DNA from: a virus
Length of the DNA stretch: 45,087 bases
IMG/VR virus record: IMGVR_UViG_3300035137_000084
Coordinates: 1-45,087 of that record
Strand: one strand, 5' to 3'
The notes under the pieces are model-generated. The model worked only from the letters and a program-made list of their open reading frames with translations. It was not told where the DNA came from and searched no databases. How positions within the stretch are numbered: position 1 is the stretch's first letter; every line of letters starts with the position of its first letter. Both the position numbers and the translations under genes were made by a program. Positions 1-45,087 of the stretch are shown one piece after another.

Positions 1-555
1 CAGGGAGCAGATTTGCGGAGAGCTTATTTGCAGGAAGCTGATTTGTGGAGAGCCAGTTTGCAGAAAGCTTATTTGCAGGAAGCTAATTTGCGGAGAGCTG
101 ATTTGCAGGGAGCAGATTTGCGGAGAGCTTATTTGCAGGAAGCTGATTTGTGGAGAGCCAGTTTGCAGAAAGCTTATTTGCAGGAAGCTAATTTGCGGAG
201 AGCTAATTTGCAGAGAGCTGATTTGCAGAGAGCTGATTTGCAGGGAGCTTATTTGTGGAGAGCCAGTTTGCAGAAAGCTTATTTGCAGAGAGCTGATTTG
301 CAGGGAGCCAATTTGCAGAGAGCCAATTTCCAGGGAGCCAATTTGCAGAGAGCCAATTTGCAGGGAGCCAATTTGCAGAGAGCCAATTTGCAGAGAGCTG
401 ATTTGCAAGGAGCTGATTTGCAAGGAGCTGATTTGCAAGGAGCTTATTTGCAGGGAGCAGATTTGCGGAGAGCTGGTTTGCAAGGAGCAGATTTGCAGGG
501 AGCAGATTTGCAGGGAGCAGATTTGCAAGGAGCAGATTTGCGGGGAGCAGATTTG
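1..555. repeat. Coding tandem repeat with 15-nt period and a 105-nt higher-order unit (1-105 vs 106-210 differ at 1 position)
   Basis: Direct reading shows the unit agc(t/a)(g/a)atttgc(a/g)g(g/a)g iterated. Nt 1-105 and 106-210 are 104/105 identical, and the same unit recurs at the 3' end of the window. Confidence 0.9.
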
Positions 556-747
556 GATTTTTCCTCTGGAATACCTTTCCATTGTGGAGGCACACATATC
601 AAAGGGGATGAAAGACTTTTTTCGCAGATGATTTATCATTTCACTCGGCAAAACTGGCAAGATTTAAACATGGAAACCCTGGTCTGGCTGCAGCAGATTC
701 CGGAAAGAATACGAGATTCTTTTAAAAAATACCGGTCTGACGTGTAA
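1..747 (+). CDS. Pentapeptide-repeat protein, C-terminal portion (same gene as 44791..45087, joined across the circular contig junction)
   Basis: Frame 3n+1 is open from nt 1. About 180 aa of uninterrupted A(D/N/S/Y)LxX pentads (ADLQG ADLRR AYLQE ADLWR ASLQK ...) are followed by a non-repeat tail of about 65 aa, with the stop at 745-747. Nt 45022-45087 duplicate nt 1-66 in the same frame. Confidence 0.85.
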   Translation, partial: QGADLRRAYLQEADLWRASLQKAYLQEANLRRADLQGADLRRAYLQEADLWRASLQKAYLQEANLRRANLQRADLQRADLQGAYLWRASLQKAYLQRADLQGANLQRANFQGANLQRANLQGANLQRANLQRADLQGADLQGADLQGAYLQGADLRRAGLQGADLQGADLQGADLQGADLRGADLDFSSGIPFHCGGTHIKGDERLFSQMIYHFTRQNWQDLNMETLVWLQQIPERIRDSFKKYRSDV

Positions 748-7757: not shown

Positions 7758-10621
7758 TATATCTCGACTTTGAAACCCGATCAAAAATAGATTTAGTACA
7801 AGCCGGGCTGTACCGCTATGCTGAAGATATATCTACATCGGTTCTCTGTCTGGCATGGGCCATGGATGATGAAAATCCGGAATTATGGATTCCCGGAGAT
7901 CCTGCACCTCACAGATTATTTAACAGCCTCCATGAACACTTCCTTTCCGCTTATAATGCAGAGTTTGAAATAACCATCTGGCGGGAGATATGTGTAAAGC
8001 GAATGGGTTGGCCCGAAATACCGGATAATAAGTGGTGTTGTACCATGATTGACGCACTCGCTCTTGGACTTCCCCGTTCTATGGAGCAGTGTGCTTTGGC
8101 TCTTGGTACCATTGACAAAAAGGACACGAAAGGCAAGAACCTTATCAGAAAGCTCAGTAAACCTATTGCTGCAGGAAAAAAGAAAGGTGAGTTCCGGGAA
8201 AAAGCTGAATTTCATCAAGATTATCTGGATCTTTATTCCTATTGTAAGCAGGATGTCAGGACAGAACGGGCCATTCGCAACAGTCTCCCCCTGCAAGCCA
8301 CTCTTAATTTTGAAAGACAGGATTGGTTGAACACTCTCAAGATGAATCGAAGAGGGATACCAATCGACAAGTTAACAGCGTCAAGTATCCTTGCCCTGTC
8401 TGAGCAGAAGATTGAAAAACTCGATGCCGAGATAATGGAATTAACAGATGAAAAAATAAGCACAGCTCGACAACGGGAAAAAATAAGGTGTCACCTGGAA
8501 GATGAGTTTAAGCTATTCGTACCGGACATGCAGAATACCACTGTTGAAAAGTTACTTGAGGGGGATTTGCCTGAAAAAGCAGAAAGGATACTGAATATTC
8601 GCAGATCGATTAATCACCCATCCGTTGCCAAGTTCAAAAAGATTTTTGTCCAACTCTGTAAAGACAGTACTATAAAAGGATGCTATGTTCACCACGGAGC
8701 AGGGACCGGCAGGTATACCGCTCAAGGTATGCAACCACAAAACTTTCCACGGTTAAGTGTTCTCTATGAGAAGGTAGCTATTGAGATGATTCAGCAGGAT
8801 TCTCTGAGTGATATAGAGCTTGTCATGGGTGACAGCCTTCATCTTTTTTCCGCTTTACTGAGGGCAAATATCAAAGCCCCTGACGGTGAAACATTCTTTA
8901 ATGCGGATCTGTCACAGATCGAAGCTCGTATGGCGGCATGGATCGCTAAAGAGTATCATATACTCAAAGCCTATGCTGACGGTCTGGATGCGTATCGGGT
9001 AACTTCTGCGGATATGTACGGGGTTCCCTATGACGTTGTAACAACGGAACAACGGCAAGGGGGAAAAACTACAGTGTTGGCATGCCTAGCTTCTGGGCAA
9101 AAAGTTCTTACAGATAAAGGGTTAATTCCTATCGAGAAAGTTTGTACTTGCATGAGGGTTTGGGATGGAGTATCCTTTGTCAATCATAGTGGAACTATTT
9201 ATCAAGGAGTAAAAAAGGTAATAAATTATGGGAAATTATTGGCAACACCGGACCACATTGTTTACACCGAAGAAGGGGAGAAAATATCCTTACAAGAAGC
9301 AAACCGGAAAAGCGCAACCATCAAAACGACCGGAATTGGTAGGAGAGCAATTCGGATGGGTGAAAATTATAGATTCACAGACTCGTATGAAAAAGAAAGA
9401 CCGACAAATAAAATGTCAATGTACCAACTGTGGATTGATAAAGTGGATCAGCTTATACAATCTTCTCAACGGCAAAACTGCTGGCTGCCAGAAGTGCAGC
9501 CAACCGAAGTTGGTTCCGAAATGGCTTTTGAAAAGGTGTGCGGACGCAAAATCTCGATGTCAAAACCAACAACACCCTCATTGGAAAAATTATGGTCAAC
9601 GTGGCATAAAGTTTTGTTTCAATTCTCCTGTGGATATGGCTCTTTGGATAGAATCAAATCTAGGATTACACAAAGATTTAGAGATAGATCGTATAGACAA
9701 CAACGGAAACTATCAAGTAGGAAATTTGAGATACTCCAACAGGCGATTAAACTGCTCAAACAGAAGAGGGAGTCGAGCTCTACGGTTCCACGAATTTCGT
9801 CAGAAGTATCCAGATGTAAGGTATGCGGACAACACCTTACGCAATTTGATATGGCGAGGGTTGACCGACGAAGAAATAGTTTATCGTTTCTACAACAAAC
9901 CGAGTTGCAAACCAAAAGGCAAGTATGGGACATTCTCAACGCCGGACCCCGAAACCGTTTCACAGTTGAAGGAAAGCTTGTAAGTAATTGCGGTTTCGGT
10001 GGAGGAGAAAAAGCCCTTGACGCAATGGCTCAGAACTATGGACTTTCTTTTACCAAAGAAAAACGAATTGAACTTGTCAATGCTTTTAGACAGGCAAGAC
10101 CTGGACTTGTAAAATCCTGGGAATCTTTTGGGGACGCAGCAAGAAAAGCCATGGAGAATCCGGGGTATGAAGTACCGGTGTCTACTAATCAAAAGTTTAA
10201 ATTTTCTCAACAAGGTCACTGGCTGTTTCTCCACCTACCAAACAATAGAAGAATATGTTTTCCTTTTGCTCAGTGGATCCCATGGAAGACTCCATGGGGG
10301 CAAATTAAAATGTCTGTTACCCATAGGTGGATGAGTTCATATACCCGCAAATGGGAAAGACGTAGTATCACAGGAGCTTCCCTTTTCCAATCCGCTGTCC
10401 AGGGTCTATCTCGTGACGTTCTAATGGAAGCTCACAGGCGATTGGAACAAAACGGATATAAAATAGTCATGACCGTTCACGATGAATTAATGGCTCAGAT
10501 AATAGACGATGCAAGTTCAAACTTGGATCATTTTAACAGGTTGTTCAAACAGAATCCTTCATGGTGTCCTGATCTCCCCATTGACAGTGATCCGTGGAGA
10601 GGGGAAAGGTACAAGAAATGA
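7754..10621 (+). CDS. Family-A DNA polymerase with 3'-5' exonuclease domain, interrupted by an intein (9083..9988)
   Basis: The start at 7754 (MIYLDFETRS) is coupled by ATGA to the upstream gene. The exonuclease motifs are DFET, YNAEFE and YCKQD. Motif A is NADLSQIEARM. Motif B, GKTTVLA|CGFGGG, is split by the intein. Motif C is VHDEL. Confidence 0.85.
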   Translation: MIYLDFETRSKIDLVQAGLYRYAEDISTSVLCLAWAMDDENPELWIPGDPAPHRLFNSLHEHFLSAYNAEFEITIWREICVKRMGWPEIPDNKWCCTMIDALALGLPRSMEQCALALGTIDKKDTKGKNLIRKLSKPIAAGKKKGEFREKAEFHQDYLDLYSYCKQDVRTERAIRNSLPLQATLNFERQDWLNTLKMNRRGIPIDKLTASSILALSEQKIEKLDAEIMELTDEKISTARQREKIRCHLEDEFKLFVPDMQNTTVEKLLEGDLPEKAERILNIRRSINHPSVAKFKKIFVQLCKDSTIKGCYVHHGAGTGRYTAQGMQPQNFPRLSVLYEKVAIEMIQQDSLSDIELVMGDSLHLFSALLRANIKAPDGETFFNADLSQIEARMAAWIAKEYHILKAYADGLDAYRVTSADMYGVPYDVVTTEQRQGGKTTVLACLASGQKVLTDKGLIPIEKVCTCMRVWDGVSFVNHSGTIYQGVKKVINYGKLLATPDHIVYTEEGEKISLQEANRKSATIKTTGIGRRAIRMGENYRFTDSYEKERPTNKMSMYQLWIDKVDQLIQSSQRQNCWLPEVQPTEVGSEMAFEKVCGRKISMSKPTTPSLEKLWSTWHKVLFQFSCGYGSLDRIKSRITQRFRDRSYRQQRKLSSRKFEILQQAIKLLKQKRESSSTVPRISSEVSRCKVCGQHLTQFDMARVDRRRNSLSFLQQTELQTKRQVWDILNAGPRNRFTVEGKLVSNCGFGGGEKALDAMAQNYGLSFTKEKRIELVNAFRQARPGLVKSWESFGDAARKAMENPGYEVPVSTNQKFKFSQQGHWLFLHLPNNRRICFPFAQWIPWKTPWGQIKMSVTHRWMSSYTRKWERRSITGASLFQSAVQGLSRDVLMEAHRRLEQNGYKIVMTVHDELMAQIIDDASSNLDHFNRLFKQNPSWCPDLPIDSDPWRGERYKK
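9083..9988 (+). mobile_element. Intein (302 codons) in the polymerase motif-B region
   Basis: Block A is CLASGQKVLTDKG, block B is LLATPDHIVYT and blocks F/G are VWDILNAGPRNRFTVEGKLVSN. The following +1 residue is Cys (CGFGGG). Confidence 0.8.
9228..9983 (+). CDS. HNH-family homing endonuclease encoded out of frame inside the intein
   Basis: Frame 3n is open for 251 codons. Motifs present are GEQFGWVKII, CQCTNCG...GCQKC and WKNYGQRGIKFC...IDRIDNNGNYQVGNLRYSNRRLN. The stop lies 5 nt before the intein C-terminal Asn codon. aagg sits 9 nt upstream of the ATG. Confidence 0.7.
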   Translation: MGNYWQHRTTLFTPKKGRKYPYKKQTGKAQPSKRPELVGEQFGWVKIIDSQTRMKKKDRQIKCQCTNCGLIKWISLYNLLNGKTAGCQKCSQPKLVPKWLLKRCADAKSRCQNQQHPHWKNYGQRGIKFCFNSPVDMALWIESNLGLHKDLEIDRIDNNGNYQVGNLRYSNRRLNCSNRRGSRALRFHEFRQKYPDVRYADNTLRNLIWRGLTDEEIVYRFYNKPSCKPKGKYGTFSTPDPETVSQLKESL

Positions 10622-13728: not shown

Positions 13729-13980
13729 ATGAAATTACCACCACTGAAAAAACCGCTCAACGGTTATGATGTATGGATTGGTCGACTGCTCATCCGTTTT
13801 AATATTGCTCGTTCTCTTATTTGGAGTGAGCAGACACACCGAATAACACGGCAGGTTGATCACCTACTAAGTGTCGGCAAGGTGACGAGAATGATTATTA
13901 ATGATCAGAAAAAATTTGTTAGATTATCAGCTATTCAGATCATTATCGGTCCATTAAAGATAATGATAGGCATGACGTAG
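13729..13980 (+). CDS. Hypothetical protein (weak)
   Basis: An ORF only, with no convincing SD. Confidence 0.3.
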   Translation: MKLPPLKKPLNGYDVWIGRLLIRFNIARSLIWSEQTHRITRQVDHLLSVGKVTRMIINDQKKFVRLSAIQIIIGPLKIMIGMT

Positions 13981-14010
13981 ACAAGAGCTGCAGGCTCTAA
14001 GGGAAATAAA

Positions 14011-14244
14011 ATGCAAAATATTTACGACAAATTGATAGACGAGATCCTGCTTGATGCAGGCTTAAATACTTGTACAACAGCGAAAGAGCCAGAACCACTG
14101 ACCGTCGAAAAGGTTCAGGAAGTTATTGCTTTGTGTGGGGGAAGGAAGCCTAAGAAATTAGAATACCTCCCTATACTGAGTGGCATAAAGGAAAGGTATT
14201 GGTACAAATTAAGACCGCCTCTTTTTGATACCACAACGACATAA
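14011..14244 (+). CDS. Hypothetical protein
   Basis: ORF with a weak SD (aaggga). Confidence 0.45.
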   Translation: MQNIYDKLIDEILLDAGLNTCTTAKEPEPLTVEKVQEVIALCGGRKPKKLEYLPILSGIKERYWYKLRPPLFDTTTT

Positions 14245-14268
14245 TGGCTGCGTTTATTTGGAGGAAAC

Positions 14269-14694
14269 ATGATACCAACACTTGTAGAAGCCGTATTTTG
14301 GGTAAGCTTATCAGTCTATCATGAAGCCCAAGGAGAACCATGGGAAGGTAAAAAAGGCGTTGCCCATGTTATTTTTACTCGGGTCAGTAATCGGGATCTG
14401 TCAGCCAAGGAGGTGGTACTCCAAAGGTATCAGTTCTCTTGGGCCAATACCAACAGCGCTAAGTTGAAAAGTAAGATCTGGCATAAAACTTTTGTTGATT
14501 GCTTGAATGCTACCCTCGAAGCCATAGCTGAACGTGCTGCTGGTAAAGATTTTCACCGGGCTGATCACTACTATGCGTTTCAGGGACGGAATAAGATCGA
14601 AGCTCCGAGTTGGTCAAAGAGAATGAAGTTGGTTAAAGATGTTGGAAATCACAGGTTCTTACGAGCCAGAAACGAAAAAGGGGGGTTATATTAA
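14269..14694 (+). CDS. SleB-like cell-wall hydrolase (candidate endolysin)
   Basis: VYHEAQGEPWEGKKGVAHVIFTRV matches the Hydrolase_2/SleB signature (E..GE...G..AVA.VI.NR). The SD is ggagga. Confidence 0.7.
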   Translation: MIPTLVEAVFWVSLSVYHEAQGEPWEGKKGVAHVIFTRVSNRDLSAKEVVLQRYQFSWANTNSAKLKSKIWHKTFVDCLNATLEAIAERAAGKDFHRADHYYAFQGRNKIEAPSWSKRMKLVKDVGNHRFLRARNEKGGLY

Positions 14695-42269: not shown

Positions 42270-42514
42270 GTTGACAAAACCAACGTACATGTATGTCTAA
42301 ACCCGCATGTTTAAAGGGCTGTGTATGTGTGTGTATGTCAAAACGAAATACCTTTTTATATAATATGAAATATATAACCAAAAGTATGTGTCAATTAACA
42401 CCTCTTTCCTTTCTCTGGTAAAATTGGTAGAGGAGTTTAATTTTGACATACACACACATACACAAGCCAGTAAATTCAAGGATCTAGACATACATGTACG
42501 TTGGTTTTGTCAAC
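42270..42514. repeat. Nested inverted repeat (outer arms 30 bp, inner arms 24 bp)
   Basis: 42270-42299 is the exact reverse complement of 42485-42514, and 42320-42343 is the exact reverse complement of 42441-42464. The non-complementary segments between arms are 20 nt on each side. Confidence 0.9.
42388..42401. promoter_or_regulatory. Operator-like site GTGTCAATTAACAC at the centre of the nested inverted repeat
   Basis: A 13/14 match to GTGTCAATTGACAC. The site centre is 42394.5, against a repeat symmetry centre of 42392. Confidence 0.45.
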
Positions 42515-44768: not shown

Positions 44769-44790
44769 AAACAAAAACGGAGAAAGAATC

Positions 44791-45087
44791 ATGAAAAAGG
44801 AAGAATTACAGAAAATCATAGAAGAGCATGAAAGCTGGTTAAAAAATGAAGGGGGACCGAGAGCTAATTTGCGGAGAGCTGATTTGCAGGGAGCAGATTT
44901 GCGGAGAGCTTATTTGCAGGAAGCTGATTTGTGGAGAGCCAGTTTGCAGAAAGCTTATTTGCAGGAAGCTAATTTGCGGAGAGCTGATTTGCAGGGAGCT
45001 AATTTGCGGAGAGCTGATTTGCAGGGAGCAGATTTGCGGAGAGCTTATTTGCAGGAAGCTGATTTGTGGAGAGCCAGTTTGCAGAAA
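44791..45087 (+). CDS. Pentapeptide-repeat protein, N-terminal portion (continues at nt 67 after removal of the 66-nt terminal duplication, or at nt 1 read as overlap)
   Basis: The ATG at 44791 follows ggagaaagaatc. MKKEELQKIIEEHESWLKNEGGPRANLRRADLQGADL... is a typical PRP N-terminal cap. The frame runs off the window end, in phase with nt 1. Confidence 0.85.
   Translation, partial: MKKEELQKIIEEHESWLKNEGGPRANLRRADLQGADLRRAYLQEADLWRASLQKAYLQEANLRRADLQGANLRRADLQGADLRRAYLQEADLWRASLQK

Follow-up and report, generated by a model that had tools for sequence, protein, structure and literature searches.

Pentapeptide-repeat proteins (PRPs) of the A(D/N)LxX type fold as right-handed quadrilateral beta-helices, in which four pentads make up one coil and each coil adds about 4.8 Å. 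In MfpA, Qnr, AlbG and McbG, the beta-helix is followed by a C-terminal helix; the beta-helix of MfpA has 8 coils, and in Qnr, loops that interrupt the beta-helix are required for gyrase protection. Ocr, ArdA and Arn, which act as early stoichiometric anti-restriction decoys, are highly acidic and have unrelated folds. Here we describe a PRP gene in IMG/VR record IMGVR_UViG_3300035137_000084, of which the complete 45,087-nt contig (C2, called the window in the following) carries the gene set of a podovirus-like phage. A first-pass annotation had placed the protein in the functional class of Ocr, ArdA and Arn and had taken it for a candidate Qnr/MfpA/AlbG-type DNA mimic. The protein has the pentads and the predicted C-terminal helix of the MfpA/Qnr group, but it is basic, remains below the cut-offs of these families, has no Qnr loops and ends in a Cys/His tail of its own that matches no sequence in the PDB. 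Judged by its sequence, it belongs to a large branch of the PRP superfamily that is mostly viral and has no name as yet; in this branch the tail is conserved while the array in front of it varies in length.

Numerous phages have annotated PRPs, and 1.4% of the PRP sequences in Pfam are viral (PMC8145042), but our search of the literature turned up no phage PRP whose function had been tested. New are the branch with a Cys/His tail that no model describes, the hypervariability of its arrays and the extreme member in the window. When 50,697 deposited phage records were searched by tblastn with two tails, Blautia phage Montmirail was the sole carrier. Its protein WAK79216.1 (ON453898.1, 5720-6013), annotated as 'pentapeptide repeat family protein', is encoded in an early operon just after the excisionase gene and has the same C-terminal module, with 69% identity to the tail of the major subfamily defined below (E = 1e-24) and a weak tblastn match to the window's tail. 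Unlike the window protein, it has 97 aa, few pentads and the extra Cys/His residues of the major subfamily, and it belongs to a temperate siphovirus of a Firmicute. The Salmonella phages L and ST64T, which are >99.9% identical, differ by a 15-bp deletion of one pentad in a PRP gene of the early-left operon, orf232, which thus also changes by whole 15-bp units (bioRxiv 10.1101/2020.10.05.325894). As the tblastn searches matched only Montmirail, orf232 probably belongs to another lineage of PRPs. Cyanobacterial and designed PRPs (HetL, Np275/276, Alr5209, Rfr23/32, 'beta1' solenoids) match the array with the top sequence scores and equal it in the regularity of their pentads, but they lack the tail module, and the bin to which the window was assigned is not cyanobacterial. 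The marginal pass of the window protein in the Alr5209 model (128.7 against 125 bits) was summed over three repeat stretches and reflects repeat number rather than orthology.

As the first-pass annotation had proposed, a single gene extends across both contig ends. Its reading frame runs from 44791 to 45087 and resumes at 67..747 after merging of a 66-nt terminal overlap (1-66 = 45022-45087). The merged gene has 978 nt and encodes 325 aa, namely an N-terminal cap (N-cap) of 24 aa, 48 in-register pentads and a non-repeat tail of 61 aa. The long uninterrupted array and the tail described earlier are thus present, with 48 pentads as assembled in place of 'roughly 50 or more' and 61 in place of about 65 aa. 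The parts of the gene are:

44779..44782, + strand: ribosome-binding site GGAG, 8 nt upstream of the ATG, read from the sequence
44791..44862, + strand: start codon (ATG 44791) and 24-aa N-cap MKKEELQKIIEEHESWLKNEGGPR with the motif H-x-x-W-L...G-G
44863..45087, + strand: pentads 1-15, running off the 3' end of the contig (Pfam PF00805, E = 1.7e-33)
1..66, + strand: exact duplicate of 45022-45087 (66-nt identity), the terminal overlap of the assembly, to be counted once
67..546, + strand: pentads 16-47 (Pfam PF00805, E = 2.3e-64)
547..747, + strand: C-terminal module with pentad 48 (ADLDF), SSGIPFHCGG...Q...H...YRSDV and the stop codon at 745-747 (profile A2, see below)

PF00805 scores of 212.9 bits for the 5' and 114.2 bits for the 3' part of the contig, compared with a cut-off of 20.2, place the protein in the PRP superfamily. 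Ala occupies position 1 in 48/48 pentads, and Leu occupies position 3 in 47/48, the remaining one having Phe; D, N, Y, S or G occur at position 2, chiefly Q at position 4 and R, G, E or K at position 5. The 15-nt periodicity noted earlier was recovered by Tandem Repeats Finder (period 15, 37 copies, score 522). Alternative frames across the array are likewise open because the repeat contains no stop codons. The N-cap motif H-x-x-W-L...G-G is common to the relatives P0002, P0005 and L002. The N-terminus is hydrophilic, and the protein has neither a signal peptide nor a membrane segment.

The tail is the part by which the family can be recognized. A tail-only search retrieved PRPs of 142-180 aa with ~52-65% identity across the whole tail, which have in common the N-cap motif H-x-x-W-L...G..G-x-R-A-x-L, a short array and a tail of the form A(D/N)LDFSSGIPFHCGG...YRxDV; the conserved tail signature is ADLDFSSGIPFHCGG...Q...H. 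From an alignment of 45 tails we built profile A2, by which the 'LDFS..P..CG...D.....Q...H' module family is defined here and which separates two tail subfamilies. The profile matches positions 547-765 of the window at E = 6.9e-22, and all seven residues that are near-invariant among 157 sequences (Asp 98%, Pro 95%, Cys 99%, Gly 94%, Asp 92%, Gln 100%, His 99%) are present. The window's tail belongs to the minor subfamily 'GIPFHCGG...HLTRQ(D/N)W...YRxDV', without the extra Cys, Cys, His and Cys of the major one. In 1.84 billion representatives clustered at 50% identity, the tail-only profile found 1,373 at E<=1e-3 and 903 at E<=1e-10; 1,373 is a lower bound on the number of clusters, and the best 150 of these 1,373 representatives were examined. 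The nearest ESM Atlas clusters are 80-89% viral. The module occurs in 29 viral loci and in dozens of contigs of genome records, whose assignments span many phyla, with Desulfovibrionaceae, Clostridia (Blautia, Extibacter), Bacteroidales, a Guaymas gammaproteobacterium and Methanobrevibacter among them. No model in Pfam, NCBIfam, PHROG or PADLOC covers the tail, neither the protein nor its tail nor two relatives matched PADLOC-DB at E<=0.01, and PDB sequence matches are confined to profile positions 1-60, the array, with none in the tail.

The 268,764-nt viral contig IMGVR_UViG_3300009285_010109 carries at least three tail-family paralogues with differing pentad numbers (144, 159 and 179 aa; L004:619-1053 and 9923-10402, L006:9866-10405 and 13842-14276). 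In another locus (L198:657-1283 and 1287-1811), two members with the same N-cap and arrays of 17 and 21 pentads stand in tandem, 4 nt apart. Members were also found on contigs binned with methanogens, one in a Methanobrevibacter metagenome-assembled genome (MAG; L045) and one in a Candidatus Methanomicula MAG (L051). The family may thus reach archaeal viruses, or these methanogen bins may be contaminated.

The structure of the last 118 residues was predicted with AlphaFold2 (AF2) from a family alignment of 54 rows. An alignment-free run on a 248-aa piece gave an all-helix model with a predicted local distance difference test score (pLDDT) of 57 and was discarded. The alignment-based model (pLDDT 89, predicted template modelling score 0.74) consists of a beta-helix with one bridge per five residues, a degenerate last coil and helices at residues 74-85, 94-101 and 105-113. 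On the first tail helix, one turn separates the conserved Gln from the conserved His, and the conserved Cys lies in the last coil. Compared with solved PRPs, the model reached Z scores of 11-13.6 at root-mean-square deviations (rmsd) of 1.2-2.3 Å, so that a quadrilateral beta-helix is predicted. According to Foldseek and VIA-align, the C-terminal half of MfpA including its terminal helix (residues 95-181) is among the best matches (Z 12.9, 86 residues, rmsd 1.8 Å). Since designed and cyanobacterial PRPs match equally well, the model identifies a PRP with a C-terminal helix and not a specific kinship with MfpA. For the whole protein, at least 12 coils correspond to a computed rod length of ~58 Å, compared with the 8 coils of MfpA.

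Tentatively, and at somewhat short of an even chance, we favor the reading that the protein is an early stoichiometric binder in which the tail is the conserved and probably the working end, while the beta-helix serves as a rigid rod that is free to vary. It would be a cytoplasmic early phage protein composed of the N-cap helix, a beta-helix with 12 or more coils and, at the C-terminus, a helical cap carrying the conserved Cys, His, Asp and Gln residues. The conservation of the tail indicates that it probably is the working end, which would cap the helix and probably supply the specific contact. An enzyme domain is absent, and the protein would act stoichiometrically, as a binder or decoy. The analysis shows the anatomy of the protein, its family, its predicted fold, the place of its gene in the genome and the behavior of the repeats; as to the mode of binding, dimerization and target, we infer that a host or phage DNA-handling or defense protein may be bound as replication begins. 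This proposal draws on the association of the family with replication and recombination genes. The protein may form a tail-to-tail dimer by analogy to MfpA and Qnr, given that the model predicts a helix at the equivalent place. A role in host takeover or anti-defense, as the first-pass annotation had suggested, would still be plausible for such a binder. A catalytic Cys-His triad was rejected as leading idea since the module has just ~65 aa and the residues may form a buried cap or metal cluster.

Several observations weigh against this reading. The conserved Cys, His, Asp and Gln could be purely structural, as a buried cap cluster or a metal site. We found no studied member of the tail family in the literature and, among ~53 distinct loci, no conserved partner gene, the best neighbor cluster being present in 5/~53; any statement about the target therefore is a guess. 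A PRP of any kind occurred in just 3/80 loci with a related large terminase (TerL identity up to 55%), from which it follows that the gene is accessory and dispensable for the basic phage cycle. Finally, assembly collapse may account for some of the length differences between alleles that are described below.

Among the alternatives, the one that survives best, although we regard it as unlikely, is an MfpA/Qnr-like topoisomerase factor, in which a beta-helix dimer would mimic the T-segment of DNA, dock on host gyrase and either inhibit it or protect it from poisons in the course of infection. The protein has the PRP fold, and the last coils and the first helix of the model superpose on the C-termini of MfpA, QnrB1 and AlbG, but cyanobacterial or designed PRPs in the PDB are matched just as well. 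The scores in the NCBIfam models for Qnr (NF033086, 75.6 bits against a cut-off of 240) and MfpA (NF000349, 63.5 against 360) stayed far below the thresholds, and the 48 pentads run without any interruption that could correspond to a Qnr loop. The gene adjoins replication and recombination genes in several unrelated phages and small phage proteins that target gyrase are known (review PMC10886550), but McbG and QnrB were no substitute for Ocr against BREX (PMC7261183), which indicates that the PRP fold alone does not confer a generic DNA-mimic activity. Charge speaks against such a mimic as well. The comparison of charge patterns, which was made from the sequence, did not reveal the predominantly negative, DNA-like pattern expected of an MfpA-type mimic. 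The isoelectric point is 9.25 for the whole protein and 9.63 for the array, which contains 34 Lys/Arg against 29 Asp/Glu (net charge +5). Coils 1-9 together carry +11, whereas coils 10-12, next to the tail, are the only acidic ones (-6); the net charges of the four helix faces are +4, +3, -3 and +1. Across the family, arrays range from ~4 to 34 pentads and from -14 to +6 in net charge, with a median of -2, which poorly fits a mimic whose size and charge are fixed. A protein that imitates a DNA segment should keep both properties, yet both drift while the tail remains fixed. The designation as Qnr/MfpA/AlbG-type DNA mimic is therefore not supported.

In contrast to the tail, the array changes rapidly, in agreement with the earlier suggestion that its length may vary. 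Metagenomic alleles with 5 and 20 pentads have identical leader, tail and downstream DNA (126/126, 207/207 and 300/300), and further allele pairs differ by 8 vs 24 and 13 vs 17 pentads. Exact in-register DNA repeats with periods of 15 to 240 nt are usual in the family. Compared with 153 complete top-scoring representatives, the window protein is extreme in its number of uninterrupted pentads (47-48, maximum of the others 25) and its size (325 aa, median 147, maximum 313). Its longest exact in-register DNA repeat has 139 nt (family median 40 nt, maximum 121 nt). Longer or fused forms of the window's subfamily (435-2000 aa) were sought and none was found, which is weak evidence.

Within the window's array, the earlier report of a 105-nt higher-order unit with 104/105 identity holds and can be extended to three copies with 104-105/105 identities, each encoding the seven pentads ADLRR AYLQE ADLWR ASLQK AYLQE ANLRR ADLQG:

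44887..44991, + strand: 105-nt (7-pentad) unit, copy 1, 105/105 identical to 1-105
1..105, + strand: 105-nt unit, copy 2, spanning the merged junction
106..210, + strand: 105-nt unit, copy 3, 104/105 identical to 1-105

In-register identity has maxima at lags of 105, 135 and 240 nt. Blocks of neighboring pentads have synonymous codons in common (GCC-AAT in pentads 32-37, GCT-GAT...CAA-GGA in pentads 38-40 and GCA-GAT in pentads 44-47), which is a signature of local tandem duplication. Together with the near-identical units and the long exact DNA repeats, these blocks bear out the recent expansion of the array that had been deduced from the 105-nt unit. The extreme length would have arisen by recent unequal recombination or slippage between the 15-nt and 105-nt repeats. 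Other in-gene tandem arrays with 15-nt and 39-nt periods, perfect or near-perfect, were observed in unrelated genes of the same phage (35656-35787, 41763-41823 and 4948-5049; 8.8 copies at 100% identity, 4.1 at 97% and 2.5 at 89%), and in-frame expansion of 15-nt repeats seems to be favored in this phage genome.

Both ends of the contig fall within the array, which bears on the copy number. The terminal 66-mer is found four times in the contig (at positions 1, 106, 44887 and 45022), and the ends are linked by exact repeats of 124, 113 and 91 nt. The 'genome junction' of the first-pass annotation, although the gene indeed spans both contig ends, therefore is an assembly overlap inside the repeat rather than an end of the physical genome. 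If the two ends were joined with the overlap left unmerged, 22 aa would be inserted and the pentads would fall out of register. The same properties would be expected if the extreme length were partly an assembly artefact, with a true gene of 150-250 aa and a repeat loop that was over-walked or non-adjacent ends that were joined, and numerous relatives are likewise truncated at contig ends. We nevertheless consider this very unlikely. All four junction types (cap-a-b-c, d-a-b-a-b-c, d-a-b-c and d-a-h) are seen away from the contig ends, and the shortest circle that holds all of them already has three units, so that 48 pentads are the minimum and more are possible; the fourfold occurrence of the terminal 66-mer likewise makes 48 a lower bound. 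Without merging, the two contig pieces encode 15 and 37 pentads, and the 37-pentad piece alone exceeds every complete relative seen. In addition, the 45-kb contig is similar in size to the genomes of its relatives (40-45.5 kb), indicating that little sequence is missing. A comparable case was observed in IMGVR_UViG_3300014914_000002 (= QNEY01000002.1, 33,259 nt; end of L020 and start of L028), which is binned as a Guaymas gammaproteobacterium MAG and closes within its own PRP gene of ~34 pentads by a 123-nt overlap that includes unique tail sequence. PRP genes were seen at contig ends in many loci, but we do not claim an enrichment because short metagenome contigs cut many genes. Highly doubtful, finally, is a basic rod that would bind nucleic acid or acidic surfaces directly, by coating or bridging DNA or RNA or by blocking a receptor in superinfection exclusion, with the tail as cap only: the net positive array, the exposed Arg/Lys and 13 Trp/Tyr over the four faces and the expression alongside replication genes would fit, but most relatives are slightly acidic, so that basic charge does not characterize the family, the absence of signal peptide and membrane segment from the hydrophilic N-terminus speaks against a role at the envelope, and the conservation of the tail would be left unexplained.

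For the reading as early stoichiometric binder, the position of the gene is relevant. Tail, internal virion, major head, portal and large terminase genes lie on the - strand, while the + strand encodes a primase-like 990-aa protein, an exonuclease, an intein-bearing family A DNA polymerase, a radical SAM protein and a SNF2 helicase; exonuclease, DNA polymerase, helicase, major head protein, portal and TerL have PHROG matches. A divergent control region at ~42.0-42.7 kb contains sigma-70-like sites pointing both ways, including:

42335..42424, + strand: two sigma-70-like promoter matches, 10/12 each, weak and from a consensus scan only

These matches are candidate starts of the rightward early unit that holds the PRP gene. 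The PRP gene is the seventh open reading frame (ORF) rightward of the control region and directly precedes the primase/exonuclease/polymerase module. ORF map, control region and the replication module directly after the gene agree with the position at the end of the early gene block that had been assigned to it. Genes of the family usually occupy early or replication-recombination modules. In five distantly related phage contigs, whose core proteins are 27-44% identical, the PRP gene likewise shares its strand with exonuclease, polymerase and helicase genes, which follow shortly downstream of it. Within 3 kb of the ~53 loci, exonuclease, SNF2-type helicases and a Sak4-like annealing protein were the only recurrent neighbors, each in 4-5 loci. 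In the closest TerL relative, the PRP is truncated at the contig end. Another TerL-related phage, IMGVR_UViG_3300027985_000521 (L132), has a 205-aa ORF on the - strand with 'ADLSx' pentads and an unrelated C-terminal domain of ~80 aa instead of the Cys/His tail, which suggests from the sequence that PRP arrays are combined with differing end modules. Megablast of 25 kb of the contig against the phage collection found no close relatives, and scanning viral contigs with the primase and metagenomes with the tail revealed nothing above 62% tail identity.

The contig was assigned to a fragmented bin (6.6 Mb, 833 contigs, 85% complete, 6% contaminated), and the G+C contents of contig and bin are 42.1% and 41.7%. 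The bin contains dsrA (G000:C306:4256-6645; 580 bits, above the cut-off) next to a dsrB-like gene, which identifies it by its gene content as a sulfate reducer or sulfur oxidizer. No match to the phycobilisome family was found in the bin, which is therefore not a cyanobacterium. With dsrAB present and phycobilisome genes absent, the putative host is a sulfur-cycling bacterium. Contig and remaining bin have no DNA match of >=16 nt, neither spacers nor a host PRP donor, so that binning is what links the phage to this host. A search of the rest of the bin did not find the Cys/His tail module. A test of the bin for type IX secretion system genes matched nothing, as was also the case in the control genomes. 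The bin has very large PRP ORFs of its own (open frames of 998, 847 and 523 aa; G000:C46:9833-13446 and G000:C228:4548-5801), which are without the phage tail module and have no DNA in common with the phage array.

Short-read assemblies break in arrays of this kind and may collapse them, and such arrays can mimic 'terminal repeats' inside genes. For annotation, the window protein illustrates that the fold alone is insufficient to label a gene as qnr-like resistance gene or DNA mimic. The combination of the tail with a hypervariable helix provides a handle for experiments, by mutation of the tail and variation of the array. In a broader form of our proposal, which we offer as a speculation with little more than an outside chance, the family would constitute a widespread 'expandable rod' counter-measure, in which the tail docks on a conserved DNA-handling or immune protein of the host, and the array acts as a contingency locus whose length and surface shift by repeat recombination on very short timescales. 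If this were true, changes of the array would tune the reach of the protein or evade recognition by the host, and the phage in the window would be the most expanded example seen.

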